DNA of 5,681 bases, taken from positions 1 to 5,681 of IMG/VR virus record IMGVR_UViG_3300045988_002123. The stretch is one strand, 5' to 3'. This stretch comes from a virus. The stretch's first letter is position 1, and every line of letters begins with the position of its first letter. Below the pieces are notes generated by a model that was given only the letters and a program-made list of their open reading frames with translations, was not told the origin of the DNA and did no database searches. Positions 1 to 5,681 of the stretch are shown piece after piece. The position numbers were made by a program, and so were the translations under genes.

Positions 1-55
1 AATTGCACAACGTGAGGACTGGACAACAAGAATTGAAATGGAAGCAAGAGGATAT
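1..55. repeat. Terminal redundancy, copy 1 (identical to 5627-5681): circular-contig overlap, not a biological repeat
   Basis: Read directly: aattgcacaacgtgaggactggacaacaagaattgaaatggaagcaagaggatat occurs at 1-55 and again at 5627-5681 with 55/55 identity. Confidence 0.97.
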
Positions 56-844: not shown

Positions 845-855
845 GCGGTGTCACC

Positions 856-900
856 TAGCCAAGTACCTATCAAGTAAGGTACTTGGCTATATTATTTTAT
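856..900 (+). terminator. Perfect 13-bp stem / 8-nt loop hairpin followed by a T-rich tail: candidate rho-independent terminator of the Rep-distal end of the transcription unit (alternatively origin-related)
   Basis: tagccaagtacct (856-868) pairs perfectly with aggtacttggcta (877-889). The loop is atcaagta. The tail tattattttat (890-900) follows. The hairpin starts 12 nt after the Rep stop. Confidence 0.6.
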
Positions 901-902
901 CA

Positions 903-945
903 GCACGCGCACGCACGCGCGTAGACGCACGCGCACGCACGTGTA
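903..945. repeat. Twin alternating purine-pyrimidine (CG/CA)n tracts: Z-DNA-prone, CpG-dense, containing a 15-nt direct repeat
   Basis: Positions 903-923 and 925-945 are each 21 nt of strict R-Y alternation, separated by one out-of-phase base (g924). gcacgcgcacgcacg occurs at 903-917 and 927-941 (15/15). There are 11 CpG in 43 nt. AT-rich DNA flanks both sides (890-900 and 945-960). Confidence 0.85.
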
Positions 946-986
946 ATTATTATTATTTATTTGTTGTAGCCGTAGTAGTAGAGTAC

Positions 987-1150
987 GTGGAAAAGTTGAA
1001 AACAGATAATTTTGAACGTTAGAACGTTAGAAAACAGCAAAAACAAATGTTGAGAGATTTGTTGAAAAAATGTTGAAACGTTGAATCACTCTGTTATGCT
1101 AAAGTTTAACAATGTGGAAATGTTGAAAACTCTGTGGAAAATGTTGAAAG
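987..1150. repeat. Iteron-like array: GTTGAAA-family heptamers, three composite GTGGAAA(A)(T)GTTGAAA units, tandem GAACGTTA x2, three AACGTT palindromes
   Basis: GTTGAAA occurs at 995, 1061, 1072, 1122 and 1143. Variants are GTTGAGA at 1049 and GTTGAAT at 1080. Composite units lie at 987-1001, 1114-1128 and 1134-1149. gaacgtta is tandem at 1014-1021 and 1022-1029. AACGTT occurs at 1015, 1023 and 1077. tgtggaaaa (1133-1141) is the reverse complement of TTTTCCACA and fits the relaxed DnaA box TTWTNCACA. tgtggaaat (1113-1121) is one mismatch off. Confidence 0.8.
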
Positions 1151-1329
1151 AACGGCAAATAGAGCAGGGCAAGCGGTGGCAGCAAAGCCTGACGGAGCGC
1201 GCCAATATTTGAAGAAGTGCGCCTGCGGGCGGGAGTTTAATGGCGCTCCTACTCTAGGAAAACTTTTCTAAAAAAATTAGAAAAAAACCTTGTCGAAGAA
1301 ATAGAGATATATTTCACCGAAAAGGAGAA

Positions 1330-1358
1330 TTGACAATCAGGAGTCCTTATAATATAAT
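1330..1358 (+). promoter_or_regulatory. Consensus sigma70-type promoter: TTGACA - 17 nt - TATAAT
   Basis: TTGACA is at 1330-1335 and TATAAT at 1353-1358, with an exact 17-nt spacer. It lies just upstream of the first gene of the co-oriented block (SD AAGGAG 1365-1370, ATG 1380). Caveat: the predicted start site near 1364-1367 would put the SD at the extreme 5' end of the mRNA. Confidence 0.6.
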
Positions 1359-1379
1359 AAAGAAAAGGAGCGACAGAAC

Positions 1380-2468: not shown

Positions 2469-2877
2469 AGTATACAGCAGATACAACCTGCCACCGAAAG
2501 AAGCAAGCACAGCAGGAGAACGAACACGAGACACATACAAGTGGACAATGAACGAAAAAGGAGAAAAAAAACTAATTCACGATGTAGACATAGACCGACA
2601 AGCAGAAATTCAGTCATATGCCGAAGAATGTGACATTAAAAACATCGTCGCACGAGCAGCATTTGATCCGAATTTTGCACAAGCACTAGCAAGTGGAGCA
2701 ATGGACGGAAGCAACGCAGATATCACAGACTATCCGGAAAACATCCACGAACTTAAAAAGATGGCAGAAAAAGCAGGCAAAACCATTGAAGAAATCACGG
2801 AAGAGCTGAATAAACCGAAGCAGCCGGAACAGCCGGAACAGAAGAAAGAAGAGGTGAAGCAGAATGAACCGGAATAA
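2461..2877 (+). CDS. VP3: Internal scaffolding protein VP3
   Basis: The 138-aa acidic protein sits immediately upstream of VP1 and overlaps it. YAEECDIKNIVARAAF resembles the conserved (E/D)ECDINxIV core of gokushovirus VP3. The ATG overlaps the previous stop (ATGAGTAA). SD GGAAGG is at 2447-2452. Confidence 0.75.
   Translation: MSKVYSRYNLPPKEASTAGERTRDTYKWTMNEKGEKKLIHDVDIDRQAEIQSYAEECDIKNIVARAAFDPNFAQALASGAMDGSNADITDYPENIHELKKMAEKAGKTIEEITEELNKPKQPEQPEQKKEEVKQNEPE
2821..2838 (+). repeat. Tandem 9-nt repeat cagccggaa x2 (+cag) encoding QPEQPEQ in the VP3 C-terminal tail
   Basis: Read directly: cagccggaa at 2821-2829 and 2830-2838. Confidence 0.9.
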
Positions 2878-4609
2878 CGAAGCGCATTTTAACAGGATTC
2901 CACAGACACACATCAGCCGATCAAGATTCAAGCGAGATCAGAATGTGAAATTCACGTTTGACGCTGGCAAGTTGATTCCATTTTATGTGGATGAAGTGCT
3001 GCCGGGTGACACTTTCAGTGTAGACACGGCAGGCCTTGTGCGTATGACCACACCGATCTTCCCGGTGATGGACAATGCGTACCTAGACGTATATTACTTC
3101 TTTGTACCAAACCGCATTGTGTGGGAACACTGGAAAGAGTTCATGGGTGAAAACACAACCGGAGCATGGGAACAAAAAACAGAATACAGCGTACCGCAAC
3201 AGTATCTAGCAGGATATACCATGAAAAGTGGAACTGAAATAGAAGCGTCACCAATCGGAACAGTACCAGAAGAAGGAACCATACTTGACTATATGGGCAT
3301 CCCAACCAAATGCAACCGAGTAGCCGCAATTACACCTGAGCAAGCAGAAAAAGACATCAGTGTAAACGCACTACCAATCAGAGGATACGTAAAGATCTGG
3401 AACGAATGGTTCAGAGACCAAAACCTAACGGACCCAGTAAAAGAATTAAAAGACGATAAACCAGCGGTATATGTAAGGCTGGACGAAAGCCACGAATGGA
3501 CAGACACACAGCTAAACTTAAACGCAGCAACGGGCGGAAAGCCGCTGCCTGTCGCAAAATATCACGACTACTTTACAAGTGCACTGCCGACACCACAAAA
3601 GGGGCCAAGCGTAGCTATCGGAATCACCGGAGATGCAAGAGTACAATGGGCATTTACAGTAGAAGAGCTGCAGAGCTATGGAATCATGACCAGCAACGGC
3701 GAATCGCACCTTGTACCGGCAAACGGAAACACTTTAGGAGCGCCGACAAGGGCCGACACAAACGGATACCCGCGCGTGTTACTGGGAAAAGATTCAGGCG
3801 GCACGAGTACATGGGTACCGATGCAGGCACGTCTTGACAATGTAGAAGCAGCGACAGTAAACCAACTGCGAGAAGCGTTTGCAGTGCAGCACTACTACGA
3901 AGCACTCGCAAGAGGCGGCAGCAGATACCGCGAAATTATTCGCAGTGTCTTTGGCACGACCATCTCAGACAAAACGGTACAAATCCCGGAATATCTGGGG
4001 GGCGGTCGCTATCCTATCAACATGTCTCAGGTCGTACAGACGAGCAGCACAACGGCAGACAGTCCGCAGGGCAACACGGCTGCGATCAGTGTAACACCGT
4101 TCAGTGAAAGCAGCTTTACAAAATCCTTCGAAGAACACGGTTTTATCATCGGTGTATGCTGTGTGAGACACGATCACACATACCAGCAGGGTATCGAAAG
4201 AATGTGGAGCAGACAGGACGCACTAGATTACTATTATCCGCAGTTTGCAAACCTGGGCGAGCAGGCCGTAAAAGTCAAAGAAATCTACACGGGAAAAGAA
4301 CTCACAAAAGAAAACACAGAAGAGGTATTTGGCTATCAAGAAGCATGGAGCGAATACAGAATGAAACCTAACCGTGTGGCGGGCAAATTCCGGTCAAACG
4401 CAACAGGCACATTAGACACATGGCACTATGCTGACAACTACGACAAAAGGCCGTATCTGTCAGACGAATGGATTAAGGAAGGGAAGCAAGAAATTCAGCG
4501 TACTCTTGCAGTACAGGACGAACCGCAATTTATTGCAGATTTCCTGATTCAAAACAATACAACCAGACCGATGCCGCTTTACAGCGTGCCAGGTCTCGAA
4601 AAACTGTAA
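2864..4609 (+). CDS. VP1: Major capsid protein VP1 (Microviridae F-type jelly-roll capsid)
   Basis: The 581-aa product has the characteristic gokushovirus VP1 opening HFNRIPQTHISRSRFKRDQNVKFTFDAGKLIPFYVDEVLPGDTF. Size and position are typical. SD GAGGTGA (2851-2857) lies 6 nt upstream. The gene overlaps the VP3 end by 14 nt. Confidence 0.95.
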   Translation: MNRNNEAHFNRIPQTHISRSRFKRDQNVKFTFDAGKLIPFYVDEVLPGDTFSVDTAGLVRMTTPIFPVMDNAYLDVYYFFVPNRIVWEHWKEFMGENTTGAWEQKTEYSVPQQYLAGYTMKSGTEIEASPIGTVPEEGTILDYMGIPTKCNRVAAITPEQAEKDISVNALPIRGYVKIWNEWFRDQNLTDPVKELKDDKPAVYVRLDESHEWTDTQLNLNAATGGKPLPVAKYHDYFTSALPTPQKGPSVAIGITGDARVQWAFTVEELQSYGIMTSNGESHLVPANGNTLGAPTRADTNGYPRVLLGKDSGGTSTWVPMQARLDNVEAATVNQLREAFAVQHYYEALARGGSRYREIIRSVFGTTISDKTVQIPEYLGGGRYPINMSQVVQTSSTTADSPQGNTAAISVTPFSESSFTKSFEEHGFIIGVCCVRHDHTYQQGIERMWSRQDALDYYYPQFANLGEQAVKVKEIYTGKELTKENTEEVFGYQEAWSEYRMKPNRVAGKFRSNATGTLDTWHYADNYDKRPYLSDEWIKEGKQEIQRTLAVQDEPQFIADFLIQNNTTRPMPLYSVPGLEKL

Positions 4610-4620
4610 AGAAAGGAGAG

Positions 4621-4645
4621 GCCCGGAGAAATCCGGGCAATTTTT
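4621..4645 (+). terminator. Intergenic stem-loop with GAAA tetraloop and T5 run between VP1 and VP2: candidate partial terminator/attenuator and translational spacer element
   Basis: gcccgga (4621-4627) pairs with tccgggc (4632-4638). The loop is gaaa. It is followed by aattttt (T run 4641-4645). It lies 12 nt after the VP1 stop and 11 nt before the VP2 ATG. Confidence 0.6.
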
Positions 4646-4648
4646 AAA

Positions 4649-5443
4649 ATGGCATTTTCACTGTTATCAGCAATACCAATGATCACAGGCGGTATCAACG
4701 CAGTAAGCGGGCTTGTATCAAGTGGTGCACAACTGGCAAATGCGTTTAAAGGCATGTCAGGCGGCGGGACAAGCTGGAATCAAAGCGGAAACGTCAGCCA
4801 TGGAGAAAGCGCAAGCACAGGTGCAAGCGGCGTAGACTACAACGCAGCACAAGCAATGAACGCCAATCTATGGAATCAAGCACTTGCAGGACAAAGCGCA
4901 CAAGCAACACAGAACGCAAAAAACAGCATCTATGCGATGGGCTTAAACACCTTAGGAGCAATTACACAGGGCGTATATAACAAAATCTCACAAGATACAG
5001 CCATGAACTACAATTCAGCAGAAGCGCAAAAAGCTAGAGACTGGTCAGAAAAAATGAGCAACACGGCCTATCAAAGAGCCGTAAAAGACATGAGAGCAGC
5101 AGGAATCAACCCGATTCTTGCGTATACACAGGGTGGAGCAAGCACACCAAGCAGCGCACAAGGAACAGCAAGCGCACAGAGTATCAGTGCGCCAAGTGTA
5201 GGGACACAATCAAGCGGAATGCCGACACCGCAGCAACCGTTGCCGGGGTGGAGCAAAACAGAAAGCTGGTCAAAAACAGATTCAAGCGGATACAGCACAG
5301 GGGGCAGCACGCAAAGCTATGGGTCAAAATGGATAGACATACCAAACGGAGAACTTAAAAACTGGTTAAGCGAAGATAAACCATCAGCCTTTAAAGCAGG
5401 CGGCGGAAGAACGCAAGGCGGCGGTGGCGGAAGAGGAAGGTGA
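4649..5443 (+). CDS. VP2: Minor capsid / DNA pilot protein VP2
   Basis: The 264-aa product has a hydrophobic N-terminus (MAFSLLSAIPMITGGINAVSGLV). Its conserved core DWSEKMSNTAYQRAVKDMRAAGINPILAY (5039-5125) matches the (MSNTA-x-QR...AG-L/I-NPIL) signature of gokushovirus VP2. The remainder is S/G/Q-rich low complexity with a GGGRTQGGGGGRGR tail. It is positioned directly after VP1. Confidence 0.88.
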   Translation: MAFSLLSAIPMITGGINAVSGLVSSGAQLANAFKGMSGGGTSWNQSGNVSHGESASTGASGVDYNAAQAMNANLWNQALAGQSAQATQNAKNSIYAMGLNTLGAITQGVYNKISQDTAMNYNSAEAQKARDWSEKMSNTAYQRAVKDMRAAGINPILAYTQGGASTPSSAQGTASAQSISAPSVGTQSSGMPTPQQPLPGWSKTESWSKTDSSGYSTGGSTQSYGSKWIDIPNGELKNWLSEDKPSAFKAGGGRTQGGGGGRGR

Positions 5444-5447
5444 AAAA

Positions 5448-5681
5448 ATGGGATGCAGTAGGCCGTTAATCCGGTTCTATTCTCCTGAAAACAAAGAAGT
5501 CAGCGGCAGGGTTTACACCCTGTCGCGTTTTTGTAAGGAGAGAGCACACAAAAATCTTAAATATGAAGATTTGATGTACAGAACGGATGTAATGTTAATA
5601 CCATGTGGACAGTGTATAGGATGTAGAATTGCACAACGTGAGGACTGGACAACAAGAATTGAAATGGAAGCAAGAGGATAT
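5448..5681 (+). CDS. VP4: Replication initiator protein VP4, N-terminal 78 codons (continues at base 56 of the window after removing the terminal redundancy; full protein 340 aa)
   Basis: The ATG at 5448 has SD GAGGAAGG (5433-5440) upstream. The translation is MGCSRPLIRFYSPENKEVSGRVYTLSRFCKERAHKNLKYEDLMYRTDVMLIPCGQCIGCRIAQREDWTTRIEMEARGY. The IPCGxCIGCR cysteine cluster is a conserved N-terminal element of gokushovirus VP4. It is in frame with 38-844 across the 5,626-nt circle. Confidence 0.9.
   Translation, partial: MGCSRPLIRFYSPENKEVSGRVYTLSRFCKERAHKNLKYEDLMYRTDVMLIPCGQCIGCRIAQREDWTTRIEMEARGY
5627..5681. repeat. Terminal redundancy, copy 2 (identical to 1-55)
   Basis: 55/55 identity with bases 1-55, read directly. 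Confidence 0.97.

Follow-up and report, generated by a model that had tools for sequence, protein, structure and literature searches.

The stretch of DNA analysed here, referred to as the window, is 5,681 nucleotides long and contains a circular genome of 5,626 nt, window positions 1-55 being the same as 5627-5681. The genome is that of a small gut single-stranded-DNA phage, a gokushovirus, and every gene lies on the + strand. VP4, the replication protein (Rep), is an HUH-type enzyme with a YxxxY motif; small ORFs, VP5 and VP3 are listed between the genes for peptidase M15 and VP1, and no theta-type initiator encoded by the phage is evident among the genome's genes. Positions 845-1379 form the sole large gap, all other gene junctions ranging from -17 to +39 nt, so that 535 of the 5626 nt (9.5%) are non-coding in this region. 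An earlier sequence-only reading had singled out this gap as oversized and free of credible ORFs, and both points held. The only ORFs found in it are 39-45 aa long, start with TTG or GTG and overlap the GC island; they were rejected as coding because the island is optional and has a frame-breaking 22-nt insert. Each of the sub-elements listed in that reading was present. The features of the locus and of the remaining genome are as follows:

5448 through the wrap to 844, + strand: VP4/Rep gene, stop codon 842-844
848-889, + strand: conserved hairpin directly 3′ of the VP4 stop codon
890-902, + strand: T-rich tail TATATTATTTTATCA, 3′ of the hairpin
903-923 and 925-945: alternating purine-pyrimidine GC-rich tracts, 21 nt each, Z-DNA-prone, adjoining the A/T stretch
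945-962: pure A/T stretch, 18 nt, candidate DNA-unwinding element
961-981, + strand: trinucleotide array TTG TTG TAG CCG TAG TAG TAG, 99% conserved
986-1002, + strand: putative tandem DnaA boxes, CGTGGAAAA (986-994) and GTTGAAAA (995-1002), 8-nt offset
1003-1047: variable spacer with a GAACGTTA tandem repeat at 1014-1032, often palindromic in relatives
1048-1087, + strand: middle array of four DnaA-box-like repeats, TGTTGAGAG, TGTTGAAAA, TGTTGAAAC and GTTGAATC
1088-1112, + strand: conserved spacer ACTCTGTTATGCTAAAGTTTAACAA
1113-1150, + strand: distal array of four DnaA-box-like repeats, TGTGGAAAT, TGTTGAAAA, TGTGGAAAA and TGTTGAAAG
1151-1262, + strand: accessory GC island, 60% GC at 1150-1249
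1330-1358, + strand: sigma-70/sigma-A consensus promoter TTGACA-17-TATAAT, 12/12 match
1380-1772, + strand: peptidase M15 gene, start codon at 1380
2864-4609, + strand: VP1 gene
4649-5443, + strand: VP2 gene

The hairpin has a perfect 13-bp stem (arms 856-868 and 877-889) and an 8-nt loop, ATCAAGTA, at 869-876. It was found in 116 of 121 relatives. Positions 848-876, which comprise the 5′ arm and the loop (29 nt, GTGTCACCTAGCCAAGTACCTATCAAGTA), are nearly invariant, and the 3′ arm is kept mainly for pairing: all 73 unique variants of the hairpin fold, with 10-15 bp, and compensatory changes occur at 5 stem positions. While the stem is conserved and covarying, the tail that follows it is only loosely T-rich and variable among relatives, and the two together resemble a weak intrinsic-terminator-like site. 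The reverse complement of the loop, TACTTGATAG, contains CTTG/ATA, the nick motif of phiX174 and pC194. A phiX-type nick site in the loop was considered and is weakened by two other copies of CTTGATA in the genome on the same strand, which is the gene-antisense one, and by the absence or non-conservation of the motif in Chp2, SpV4 and phiMH2K.

The conserved core of the gap, approximately positions 903-1150, leads from the A/T stretch to DnaA-trios (TAG nnG TAG TAG TAG), tandem boxes and two further arrays made of TGT(T/G)GAAA boxes. Runs of alternating purines and pyrimidines that reach 14 nt or more, 14 being the maximum in shuffled sequences, were present in 96 of 100 relatives and end 8-13 nt 5′ of TTGTTG. 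The CACGCGC within this tract might be a Lactococcus-type Chi site (GCGCGTG). Across 106 unique relatives a block of ~13 nt in the A/T stretch is 100% A/T; its bases vary and its composition is kept. The four TAG units at 967-969 and 973-981 correspond to DnaA-trio motifs (5′-TAG-3′ being 3′-GAT-5′), and some relatives have five. This trio run, whose orientation and spacing relative to the AT-rich stretch on one side and the boxes on the other are canonical, had gone unnoticed in the sequence-only reading. The tandem box pair, which written out reads GTGGAAAA GTTGAAAA, follows the trios at a distance of 4-5 nt. Conservation of the trios and boxes is 95-99% in the 106 unique relatives, whose consensus consists of the alternating GC tract, ~13 nt of A/T, TTGTTG TAG nnG TAG TAG TAG, 5 nt, and GT(G/T)GAAAA GTTGAAAA. 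The combination of invariant trios with a maintained A/T composition points to selection for duplex opening and not for DnaA binding alone.

The repeat array reported earlier was confirmed, with a span of 987-1150. DnaA-box-like 9-mers occur in it at 25 per kb, all on one strand, compared to ~1 per kb elsewhere in the genome, and their number was reached by none of 2000 shuffles; no second box cluster exists elsewhere in the genome. The conserved spacer at 1088-1112 includes a TRTG-n-TAAAGT motif that resembles an extended -10 element, and its sequence differs in another sub-clade. The + strand of the core is C-poor and unstructured. Reading TGTTGAA as a Spo0A '0A box' (TGNCGAA) was dropped: almost every copy lacks the C, and the match to host origins described below explains the repeats better.

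Downstream of the core, the GC island is an occasional component, found in only 13 of ~214 fetched loci, always in the + orientation (13/13). In its consensus fold GGAGCGC pairs with GCGCTCC as the outer stem, CGCC/GGCG form an inner hairpin, and an insert of 22 nt optionally adds a further hairpin, with double changes at 4 of the 18 predicted pairs; its folding energy was no better than that of shuffled sequences on either strand (z = +0.6 and +0.36). The promoter at 1330-1358 is the only 12/12 match in the genome, and a Shine-Dalgarno sequence, GGAG, lies at 1367-1370, between the promoter and the peptidase start codon. Promoters matching at 11 or more of the 12 positions with a 17-nt spacer were found downstream of the core repeats in 76 of 95 relatives versus 1 of 95 shuffles.

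The sequence-only reading had suggested aligning the intergenic regions of related phages. When this was done, the hairpin, the alternating GC tract, the promoter and the module formed by trios, boxes and arrays (hereafter the cassette) were all conserved. The cassette is present in ~115 of 121 relatives and occupies the same site in over 110 genomes that were assembled independently and come from several studies and from pig, human and monkey hosts, some of these genomes showing only 52-54% VP4 identity. A strict version of the cassette pattern was detected in 61 of 72 relatives picked by VP4 homology alone and in 2 of 940 shuffled genomes. Median conservation at the DNA level is 74.5% for the cassette versus 73.8% for VP4 and 63.9% for VP1, and the cassette was more conserved than VP1 in all 56 comparisons. 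In 7 genomes it is inverted as one unit of ~205 nt. The treatment of the 535 nt as a single unit was, in turn, not borne out: conserved and accessory parts are mixed, since the GC island and the A-tracts are lineage-specific accessories. The gap is probably a modular control region. Identification of the packaged strand was attempted through polarised C>T versus G>A singletons and gave no answer because the fetched relatives are too divergent, with no cluster of at least four genomes reaching 93% identity. An 18-mer match in a 13-kb contig that is not a microvirus proved to be a chance match of 32 nt.

The repeats have a counterpart in bacterial chromosomes. The 31-nt pattern GTAGTAGTAGN5GTKGAAAAGTTGAAAA matched 15 bacterial contigs, all of them from Clostridia (Oscillospiraceae, Ruminococcus and Lachnospiraceae). 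All 15 matches fall within the dnaA-dnaN spacer, at 37-120 nt from dnaN on its upstream side; dnaA was found on the far side of the match in 12 of them, and the other 3 are cut by the end of the locus. VP1 and VP4 were sought on the 15 contigs and none was found, nor were integrated copies. Identical tandem boxes are present in the 15 host spacers, which are colinear with the phage cassette over ~210 nt with a mean column identity of 71% in the alignment. The host variable spacer, ~45 nt, is close in length to that at 1003-1047 in the phage, the middle array is colinear with the host array TTGTTGAAAAAATGTTGAAAAGTTGAAAAC, and the host box arrays read TGTTGAAAA/TGTGGAAAA. There are also differences. 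Where hosts have the GC cluster GGGCT between trios and boxes the phage has AGTAC, and the 18-nt A/T stretch of the phage is shorter than the A-rich tracts of the hosts and is abutted by the alternating GC tract, which is phage-specific and takes the place of the host A-rich tract. Judged by sequence, the repeats that had been called iterons are a DnaA-box variant of Clostridia chromosomal origins. From the flavour of the boxes we infer that the host is one of the Clostridia of the Oscillospiraceae, Ruminococcaceae or Lachnospiraceae type. In a distant microvirus lineage VP4 is likewise followed directly by a cassette, here with canonical TGTGGATAA boxes and in the opposite orientation.

The layout was compared with the basal unwinding system (BUS; Richardson 2016, Pelliciari 2021) of bacterial origins, which is defined by a DnaA box with no more than 2 mismatches located 0-16 bp from at least three consecutive NAN trios, preferably 3′-GAT-5′, and an optional tandem box (PMC8287927). 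In B. subtilis the order is 5′-AT-rich, TAGTAGAAGTAATAGTAG, GGCC, TGTGGATT, TGTGGATAA-3′ (PMC8287927; PMC10201434). The C. difficile origin also carries trios, and in vitro its oriC2 did not unwind by itself (PMC7561715). In the phage, the first box, CGTGGAAAA, differs from TTATCCACA at 2 positions and is separated from the last TAG by 4 nt; in most relatives this box is TGTGGAAAA, with 1 mismatch. Three consecutive trios (973-981) are accompanied by the one at 967-969, the A/T stretch at 945-962 is distal to them, and the succession AT-rich, trios and boxes (in the TGTGGATAA direction) is found on the 5′-TAG-3′ strand. The second box, AGTTGAAAA at 994-1002, has 3 mismatches, where up to 4 were accepted. 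The same element occurs at the chromosomal origins of plausible hosts, upstream of dnaN in 15 of 15 cases. Order of the parts, strand and spacing are like those of B. subtilis incC (DnaA-boxes 6/7, DnaA-trios and AT-rich 27-mer) and C. difficile oriC2, the 8-nt offset of the tandem boxes is the one seen in the B. subtilis TGTGGATT-TGTGGATAA pair, and, as in a bacterial BUS, TnnT repeats are found on the complementary strand. Unlike a bacterial BUS, the cassette has no GC-rich spacer between trios and boxes, and its A/T stretch borders on an alternating GC tract. Unlike a bacterial oriC, the cassette is compact (~210 nt), is carried by a 5.6-kb single-stranded-DNA phage, is found in either orientation and lies away from dnaA and dnaN, between VP4 and peptidase M15; an oriC1-like second box cluster, as in Firmicutes oriC, is missing. 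Being neither at dnaA/dnaN nor bipartite, the element is origin-module-like and not a chromosomal origin. It does not have the make-up of an iteron-type plasmid origin either, as its repeats are the 8-9-mers that fill the host dnaA-dnaN spacers.

These comparisons supported and sharpened the proposal that the gap is laid out like a replication-control region of a plasmid or chromosome: it has host-type boxes and trios in a pattern that recurs in 15 Clostridia dnaA-dnaN spacers. The further claim that this layout is not that of a classical microvirus origin was upheld by the same boxes, trios and colinear spacers; the phiX174 origin is a 30-nt site inside gene A. The core at ~903-1150 is probably a phage-borne mimic of the unwinding module of the host chromosomal origin (dnaA-dnaN spacer, oriC2/incC, BUS). 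The identity of the cassette as a DnaA-box/trio module matching the host origin is very probable, and the likeness suggests that the phage uses the host initiator DnaA. For its predicted function, helicase loading and replication of the replicative form, we regard the case as close to evenly balanced.

According to this model, host DnaA-ATP would bind the double-stranded replicative form at the box pair (986-1002) and at both additional arrays, and would then polymerise along the TAG trios, melting the adjoining A/T stretch. The host helicase loaders (DnaD, DnaB and DnaI-DnaC in Firmicutes) would then build a replisome at the cassette. The replicative form would thereby gain a host-driven round of theta-type replication, and possibly plasmid-like persistence, acting beside or feeding the VP4-dependent rolling-circle synthesis of progeny strands. 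The upstream hairpin would end the single long transcription unit, and might also be a recognition site for VP4; together with the strong downstream promoter it would keep the cassette free of transcription, and transcription leaving the cassette would favour melting. The presence of the cassette in both orientations fits an action on double-stranded DNA. Some considerations weigh against reading the cassette as an origin: the proximal box has 2 mismatches to TGTGGATAA and the second box 3, AGTAC stands in for the GC cluster of the hosts, the A/T stretch is short and next to a GC-rich tract, the host is predicted from sequence resemblance, and we know of no microvirus that needs DnaA, phiX174 replication depending on gpA, the Rep helicase and the PriA primosome. 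The predicted DnaA cassette may, moreover, not fire alone, because Firmicutes origins are usually bipartite and the oriC2 of C. difficile is not unwound by itself. Origin plasmids of B. subtilis also need the box cluster upstream of dnaA.

A cassette of this type could instead bind host DnaA without being a start site. As a sink, the copies of the replicative form, with ~12 boxes each, would titrate DnaA and stop or delay host initiation; as a sensor, DnaA occupancy would tune phage gene expression to the growth state of the host. Titration of DnaA by chromosomal box clusters has precedents (E. coli datA and the B. subtilis box clusters), the dense one-strand array of host-type boxes agrees with such a role, and independence of orientation fits it equally well. 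Boxes alone would suffice for it, yet the trios are the most invariant part and the A/T composition is kept, and both serve strand opening. The promoter that a sensor would act upon is 180-400 nt away from the boxes, with variable inserts between them. We consider a sink or sensor unlikely.

Every microvirus requires a complementary-strand origin, and to our knowledge neither a plus-strand nor a complementary-strand origin has been mapped for gokushoviruses. On the incoming single-stranded genome, DnaA or DnaD could be recruited by the strand with the trios or by the complementary one, which carries the DnaD recognition element (TnnT repeats), and a primosome would then start second-strand synthesis. 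The C-poor, unstructured + strand of the cassette would suit this role, and DnaD, when bound to single-stranded DNA, promotes loading of the helicase at single-strand origins (PMC10201434). The function would be strand-dependent, however, and relative to the genes the cassette is found either way round. Duplex DNA is the form in which DnaA boxes are recognised, the repeats are direct and so cannot pair within a single strand, and a maintained A/T composition would be pointless in DNA that is already single-stranded. Such an origin is, in our view, quite unlikely.

A classical rolling-circle double-strand origin would have the hairpin as the VP4 nick site and the TGTTGAAA repeats as VP4-binding iterons, with an arrangement like the 'bind' locus of pMV158 and an incidental likeness to DnaA boxes. 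Iterons close to a nick hairpin are common among rolling-circle replicons, and the near-invariance of the 29 nt of 5′ arm and loop goes beyond what a terminator needs. As in the phiX174, pC194 and pMV158 systems, an HUH Rep is accompanied by a conserved hairpin, here with this block of ~29 nt adjoining rep. The loop complement holds CTTG/ATA; that motif is antisense, with the additional copies and poor conservation described above. The same repeats, trios and spacing are found in 15 dnaA-dnaN spacers without phage genes, and the distant microvirus has perfect TGTGGATAA boxes instead. Among relatives, hairpin and repeats are separated by as little as ~60 nt or by over 250 nt, the inserts between them being unrelated, and the cassette is invertible. 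The large repeat array of the phage is apparently not a Rep iteron set, and we judge this explanation very unlikely. The non-homologous GC-rich cassettes swapped near the phage hairpin are reminiscent of plasmid single-strand origins (ssoA/ssoU). Such ssoA-like origins fold extensively and stably in a fixed orientation; the GC island shows the fixed orientation and a few covarying pairs, with a folding energy no better than in shuffled sequences.

High conservation with no coding capacity would also be expected of a structured non-coding RNA or a long regulatory 5′ leader for the downstream genes. The whole gap folds better than shuffled sequences (z = -4.5), and a few compensatory pairs are present in the GC island. 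Most of this folding excess is due to the hairpin, the island is missing from most relatives, and an Rfam search of the whole window produced no match at E ≤ 1. The C-poor strand and direct repeats of the cassette, its occurrence in either orientation and the location of the promoter downstream of it make an RNA highly improbable. A chimeric assembly that joined phage DNA to host origin DNA, or a single past recombination with a host that left a neutral relic, would account for the resemblance to host DNA and can practically be dismissed, given the same placement in more than 110 independent assemblies (including the relatives with 52-54% VP4 identity), phage-specific invariant features such as TAACTTGTTG and the alternating GC tract, and a conservation equal to that of the Rep gene.

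The preferred reading, a phage-borne copy of the host unwinding module, has partial precedents. Other mobile elements carry host DnaA boxes, as in P1 oriR, pSC101, F, R6K, RK2 and the T5 injection-stop cluster. Such DnaA-auxiliary plasmid and phage origins pair one to few boxes with their own initiator and iterons, and we know of none described with a trio array and a full host BUS layout. The oriC plasmids or minichromosomes of E. coli, Spiroplasma and Mycoplasma are small circles with a chromosomal-type origin for host DnaA to fire, as is proposed for the phage; they are laboratory constructs with a complete origin and usually dnaA, whereas the phage cassette is natural and partial, and its carrier is a lytic-type virus with a rolling-circle Rep of its own. 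Lysogenic gokushoviruses have dif-like XerC/XerD sites in their non-coding regions (Kirchberger and Ochman 2020, PMC7062461). Like those, the cassette is a host-type cis-element in a non-coding region that would exploit a host chromosome-maintenance system and could underlie persistence; unlike them, it concerns initiation of replication and not dimer resolution, and no integration was seen. That report led us to consider a dif-like XerCD site in the gap, and the candidate was rejected: no dif-like palindrome was seen and the genome matches included no integrated copies.

Among the papers searched, none relevant to oriC or DnaA boxes of gokushoviruses or other Microviridae came up. If the model is correct, this would apparently be the first natural virus shown with a full host-origin unwinding module. 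Theta-type, cell-cycle-coupled and plasmid-like replication, with persistence that does not need integration, would then exist alongside rolling-circle production of progeny, and would provide a mechanism by which gut bacteria carry microviruses over long periods. A plasmid-like carrier state and multi-year persistence have been reported for gut microviruses, and the cassette is a candidate mechanism for both. Gokushovirus replication is essentially unmapped and the gut hosts are mostly not known; the cassette provides a concrete cis-element of ~210 nt with a named candidate host partner, DnaA, and the flavour of its boxes yields a host prediction, an idea applicable to other uncultured phages. 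Should DnaA fire the cassette, a virus that replicates by rolling circle would also exploit the chromosome's own initiation system. It is possible, and we put it forward only tentatively, that a copy of the host origin, acquired by capture or by evolution and fired by DnaA as in a minichromosome, exists in gut gokushoviruses that infect Clostridia and in one or more further microvirus lineages, the latter with canonical DnaA boxes. Host-origin mimicry may be a general, overlooked strategy. In side scans, patterns suggesting that unrelated double-stranded-DNA phages do likewise were also encountered.

The stretch is a 5,626-nt circular genome whose ends overlap by 55 nt. Among public records, gut gokushoviruses sampled from the faeces of pigs, humans and monkeys come closest, with genes about 70% identical. 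All of its genes are on the + strand and are arranged as follows:

5448 via the wrap to 844, + strand: VP4 (Rep)
1380-1772, + strand: peptidase M15 endolysin-like gene
+ strand: three small ORFs
+ strand: VP5, VP3, VP1 (2864-4609) and VP2

The sequence-only reading had singled out the gap at 845-1379, and on recheck we obtained the same size (535 nt, 9.5% of the genome), the same range of -17 to +39 nt for all other gene junctions, and every sub-element at the place assigned to it. The gap was also described as lacking a credible ORF. Only a few were found, each of 39-45 amino acids with a TTG or GTG start, and they were considered non-coding because they overlap a segment that is absent from most relatives and carries a 22-nt indel.

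A blastn search with the gap alone as query returned 72 phage records. Positions 846-1265 share 77-89% identity with the closest of them, while the whole-genome matches of the same records average only about 70%. Relatives were collected through VP4 homology (80 genomes) and a conserved 18-mer (38 genomes), and all were oriented by VP4. The alignment of their gaps, a check proposed with the original description, showed that the hairpin, a core block (949-1150) and the promoter are kept in most relatives; hardly any lack the block, which persists even where VP4 identity falls to 52-54%. When 56 relatives were aligned globally, the median identities were 74.5% for the block, 73.8% for VP4 DNA and 63.9% for VP1 DNA, and the block exceeded VP1 in 56 of 56 comparisons. 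The consensus of 106 unique copies consists of an alternating GC tract, about 13 nt of pure A/T, TTGTTG TAG nnG TAG TAG TAG, 5 variable nt, and GT(G/T)GAAAA GTTGAAAA. Across these copies the trinucleotides and both 8-mers are 95-99% conserved, and the A/T stretch is conserved in composition but not in sequence.

This arrangement was compared with the bacterial basal unwinding system (BUS), in which DnaA-trios (3′-GAT-5′, or 5′-TAG-3′) come after a tandem pair of DnaA boxes and are succeeded by an AT-rich stretch (PMC8287927). The published search rule, a box with up to two mismatches located 0-16 bp from at least three NAN trios with an optional second box (PMC8287927), picks out the phage block. 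The Bacillus subtilis sequence given 5′ to 3′ in a supplementary table is AT-rich, TAGTAGAAGTAATAGTAG, GGCC, TGTGGATT, TGTGGATAA (PMC8287927), an order that agrees with the DRE sequence (PMC10201434); its strand order and 8-nt box offset are the same as those of the phage. Clostridioides difficile carries CTACTACTATTACTACTA, on the opposite strand (PMC7561715). The repeat array was confirmed across 987-1150. Box-like 9-mers (TGTGNAWAA, up to one mismatch) reach a density of 25 per kb in the block, versus about 1 per kb elsewhere in the window; all are on the + strand, and the observed count was reached in 0 of 2000 shuffles. A strict pattern, (TAG)3 followed after 0-16 nt by a box with up to two mismatches, was present in 61 of 72 relatives chosen by VP4 homology alone versus 2 of 940 shuffled genomes.

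Scanning 185,579 species genomes with the pattern GTAGTAGTAGNNNNNGTKGAAAAGTTGAAAA identified 15 contigs, all from Clostridia (Oscillospiraceae, Ruminococcus flavefaciens, other Ruminococcus, Lachnospiraceae and unclassified Clostridia), and neither VP1 nor VP4 is encoded in any of the 15. All 15 matches are located upstream of dnaN, at a distance of 37-120 nt, and read on the other strand from the genes; dnaA is on the far side in 12, and in the other three the fetched locus stops short of dnaA. Pairwise identity among the DnaA proteins of the matched genomes is only 35-100%, so the motif is an origin feature shared across the group. In order, the host spacers comprise an A-rich tract, (TAG)5, GGGCT, GT(G/T)GAAAAGTTGAAAA, about 45 nt, three TGTTGAAAA boxes, about 20 nt, and four or five TGTTGAAA/TGTGGAAAA boxes. 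Over about 210 nt these spacers and the phage block are colinear, with 71% mean column identity for two phages and four hosts. This colinearity indicates that the repeats, previously called iterons, are a Clostridia variant of the DnaA box, and that the block is a compact mimic of the Clostridia oriC2, the part of the origin located in the dnaA-dnaN spacer. The suggested replication-control layout was thus supported and sharpened to a BUS match shared with Clostridia dnaA-dnaN spacers. The strong Shine-Dalgarno sites and sigma-A consensus promoter fit a Firmicutes host. Among the papers searched there was no relevant report of DnaA boxes or oriC in Microviridae or gokushoviruses; the known gokushovirus cis-elements are dif-like sites (PMC7062461), and very small microviruses have conserved hairpins with no assigned role (PMC9865509).

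In seven relatives (L005, L023, L036, L039, L051, L075 and L079) the block, in the region after VP4, is inverted in place, with the hairpin, the alternating GC tract and the downstream parts retaining their orientation. The inverted copies delimit the mobile unit as exactly the A/T stretch, trios and boxes, about 205 nt, and leave the GC tract behind. Judging by VP4 identities and flanking sequence, the inversions seem to have arisen independently at least three or four times; no inverted repeats were seen flanking the seven inverted cassettes.

Judged by its sequence, the element is a host-origin unwinding module on a rolling-circle single-stranded-DNA phage, and an unwinding function is plausible. 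Host DnaA-ATP would bind the boxes in the double-stranded replicative form, extend along the trios and melt the A/T stretch, and host loaders would then place the replicative helicase at the melted site. The replicative form could in this way be amplified by theta-type replication or carried like a plasmid, in concert with VP4-driven rolling-circle synthesis. Duplex opening is favoured over DnaA binding alone and over a role on single strands, since the trios are invariant, the A/T stretch is constrained in composition only, and the cassette survives inversion. As a counterpoint, Firmicutes origins are usually bipartite, and the finding that C. difficile oriC2 alone did not open in vitro (PMC7561715) counts against this mechanism. 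A sink or sensor that binds DnaA would account for the boxes but leaves the trios and the A/T stretch unexplained, and we consider it improbable. Somewhat less probable still is a complementary-strand origin, which is strand-dependent by nature and so contradicted by the inversions; furthermore, direct repeats in single-stranded DNA cannot form duplex boxes. A structured RNA is unlikely given that an Rfam search of the window gave no match, the cassette occurs inverted and the promoter is downstream of the block. Iterons for Rep are excluded since bacterial origins have identical arrays and a distant microvirus lineage uses perfect TGTGGATAA boxes, and an assembly artefact is excluded by the presence of the block in more than 110 independent genomes.

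Similar cassettes were found in other viruses. Over 119 viral contigs contain the Clostridia-type pattern, and almost every one is 5-6 kb long. Two non-microvirus loci, L192 (about 2280-2560, in a 140.5-kb IMG/VR phage contig) and L157 (about 2030-2313, in a 23.6-kb contig), have the Clostridia-type cassette, made up of an AT-rich stretch, (TAG)4, GTTGAAAAGTTGAAAA and box arrays. That of L192 occupies an intergenic gap among genes for RNA ligase, dCMP deaminase, an Mre11-like phosphoesterase (nuclease) and a GyrB/GyrA-like topoisomerase; the fetched part contains neither dnaA nor dnaN. A canonical-box version of the pattern matched 36 viral contigs, and dnaA and dnaN were absent from the vicinity in all of them. 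Two of the 36 are the distant microviruses L243 (about 1-330, across the contig ends) and L247 (about 2250-2600), of 4.65 and 4.79 kb, which share 35-37% VP1 and about 29% VP4 identity with the window. Their cassette, an AT-rich stretch, (TAG)5-6, GCAT, TGTGGAAATGTGGAAAA and four to five perfect TGTGGATAA boxes, lies directly 3′ of VP4 in the orientation opposite to the window's, and its box flavour is unlike that of the window, as though fitted to some other host. L215, L217, L233 and about 30 other canonical-pattern loci are in high-GC viral contigs of about 34 kb, with GGTAGTAGATAGTAG-GCACC-TGTGGATATGTGGATAA and clusters of TTATCCACA boxes; the stretches fetched from them contain neither dnaA nor dnaN. 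Taken by their sequences, phage-borne origin-like modules may be widespread. A 32-nt intergenic stretch of a 13-kb non-microvirus viral contig (L090, 11214-11245) is 90% identical to window 1096-1127; this was judged a chance match, the contig having no other similarity to the window.

The hairpin (856-889) has a perfect 13-bp stem and, in 116 of 121 sequences, comes after the VP4 stop codon. The 29 nt of its 5′ arm and loop (848-876) are almost invariant, and the 3′ arm drifts with pairing kept. All 73 unique variants fold (10-15 bp), with compensatory changes at five stem positions; on this comparison the hairpin is real and sequence-constrained. The loop (869-876; minus strand 868-877) reads TACTTGATAG on the gene-antisense strand and includes CTTGATA, the nick motif of phiX174 and pC194 (cut CTTG/ATA). 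The motif recurs twice on the minus strand (4340 and 4722), and no conserved counterpart was found in Chp2, SpV4 or phiMH2K. Much as in the 30-nt phiX174 origin, the invariant 23 nt come after CTTGATA on the antisense strand. If the loop motif has significance, it would be the gene-antisense strand that is packaged. A terminator, a VP4 site, or both, are possible roles. The coding strand of the whole genome is skewed (A 38.1%, T 18.0%, G 23.8%, C 20.2%), which bears on the strand packaged; the skew of phiMH2K is similar, whereas those of SpV4 and Chp2 differ.

The Z-DNA-prone tract (903-945) comprises two 21-nt runs of strictly alternating purine/pyrimidine. Such a tract, typically of 20-26 nt and ending 8-13 nt before TTGTTG, is present in 96 of 100 relatives but not in the Clostridia host origins, and could limit melting or respond to supercoiling as Z-DNA. 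The promoter (1330-1358) is, as proposed, a consensus one, the sole 12/12 match in the genome; a promoter of at least 11/12 with a 17-nt spacer occurs downstream of the block in 76 of 95 relatives versus 1 of 95 shuffles. As the genes all read from the promoter round to the hairpin, the block would be the only part of the circle expected to be untranscribed.

The GC island reaches 60% GC at 1150-1249 and is present in only 13 of about 214 fetched loci, being absent from the closest relative spanning the region (97% VP4 identity). Its consensus fold, with an optional 22-nt hairpin, retains pairing through two-sided change at 4 of 18 predicted pairs, and its folding energy is nothing unusual. 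The island is an accessory element. Its positions 1186-1250 and their homologs contain two to three copies of GTCT(G/A)AC(G/C)G (AGTCTGACGGAGCGC, CAGTCTGACCGGC in the optional insert, and GAGTCTAACGGCGC), which could be a protein-binding repeat instead of or besides the fold. Between the hairpin and the GC tract, relatives have or lack short, unrelated inserts with many GC hairpins (e.g., GGGGTTGACTTAAAAGTCAACCCC, GCGCCCCAATCATGGGGC, GGGGGAGACTAAAGGTCTCCCCC; relatives L003 about 5390-5540, L002 about 1125-1210, and L039 down-sequence 95-165), which by sequence look like small mobile or exchangeable cassettes. Finally, the 39-nt VP1-VP2 gap holds a GC-rich hairpin of 7 bp (GCCCGGAGAAATCCGGGC) and, after it, a T-run (4621-4638); this element scores as terminator-like on both strands and may serve as an internal attenuator at the capsid-pilot gene junction.
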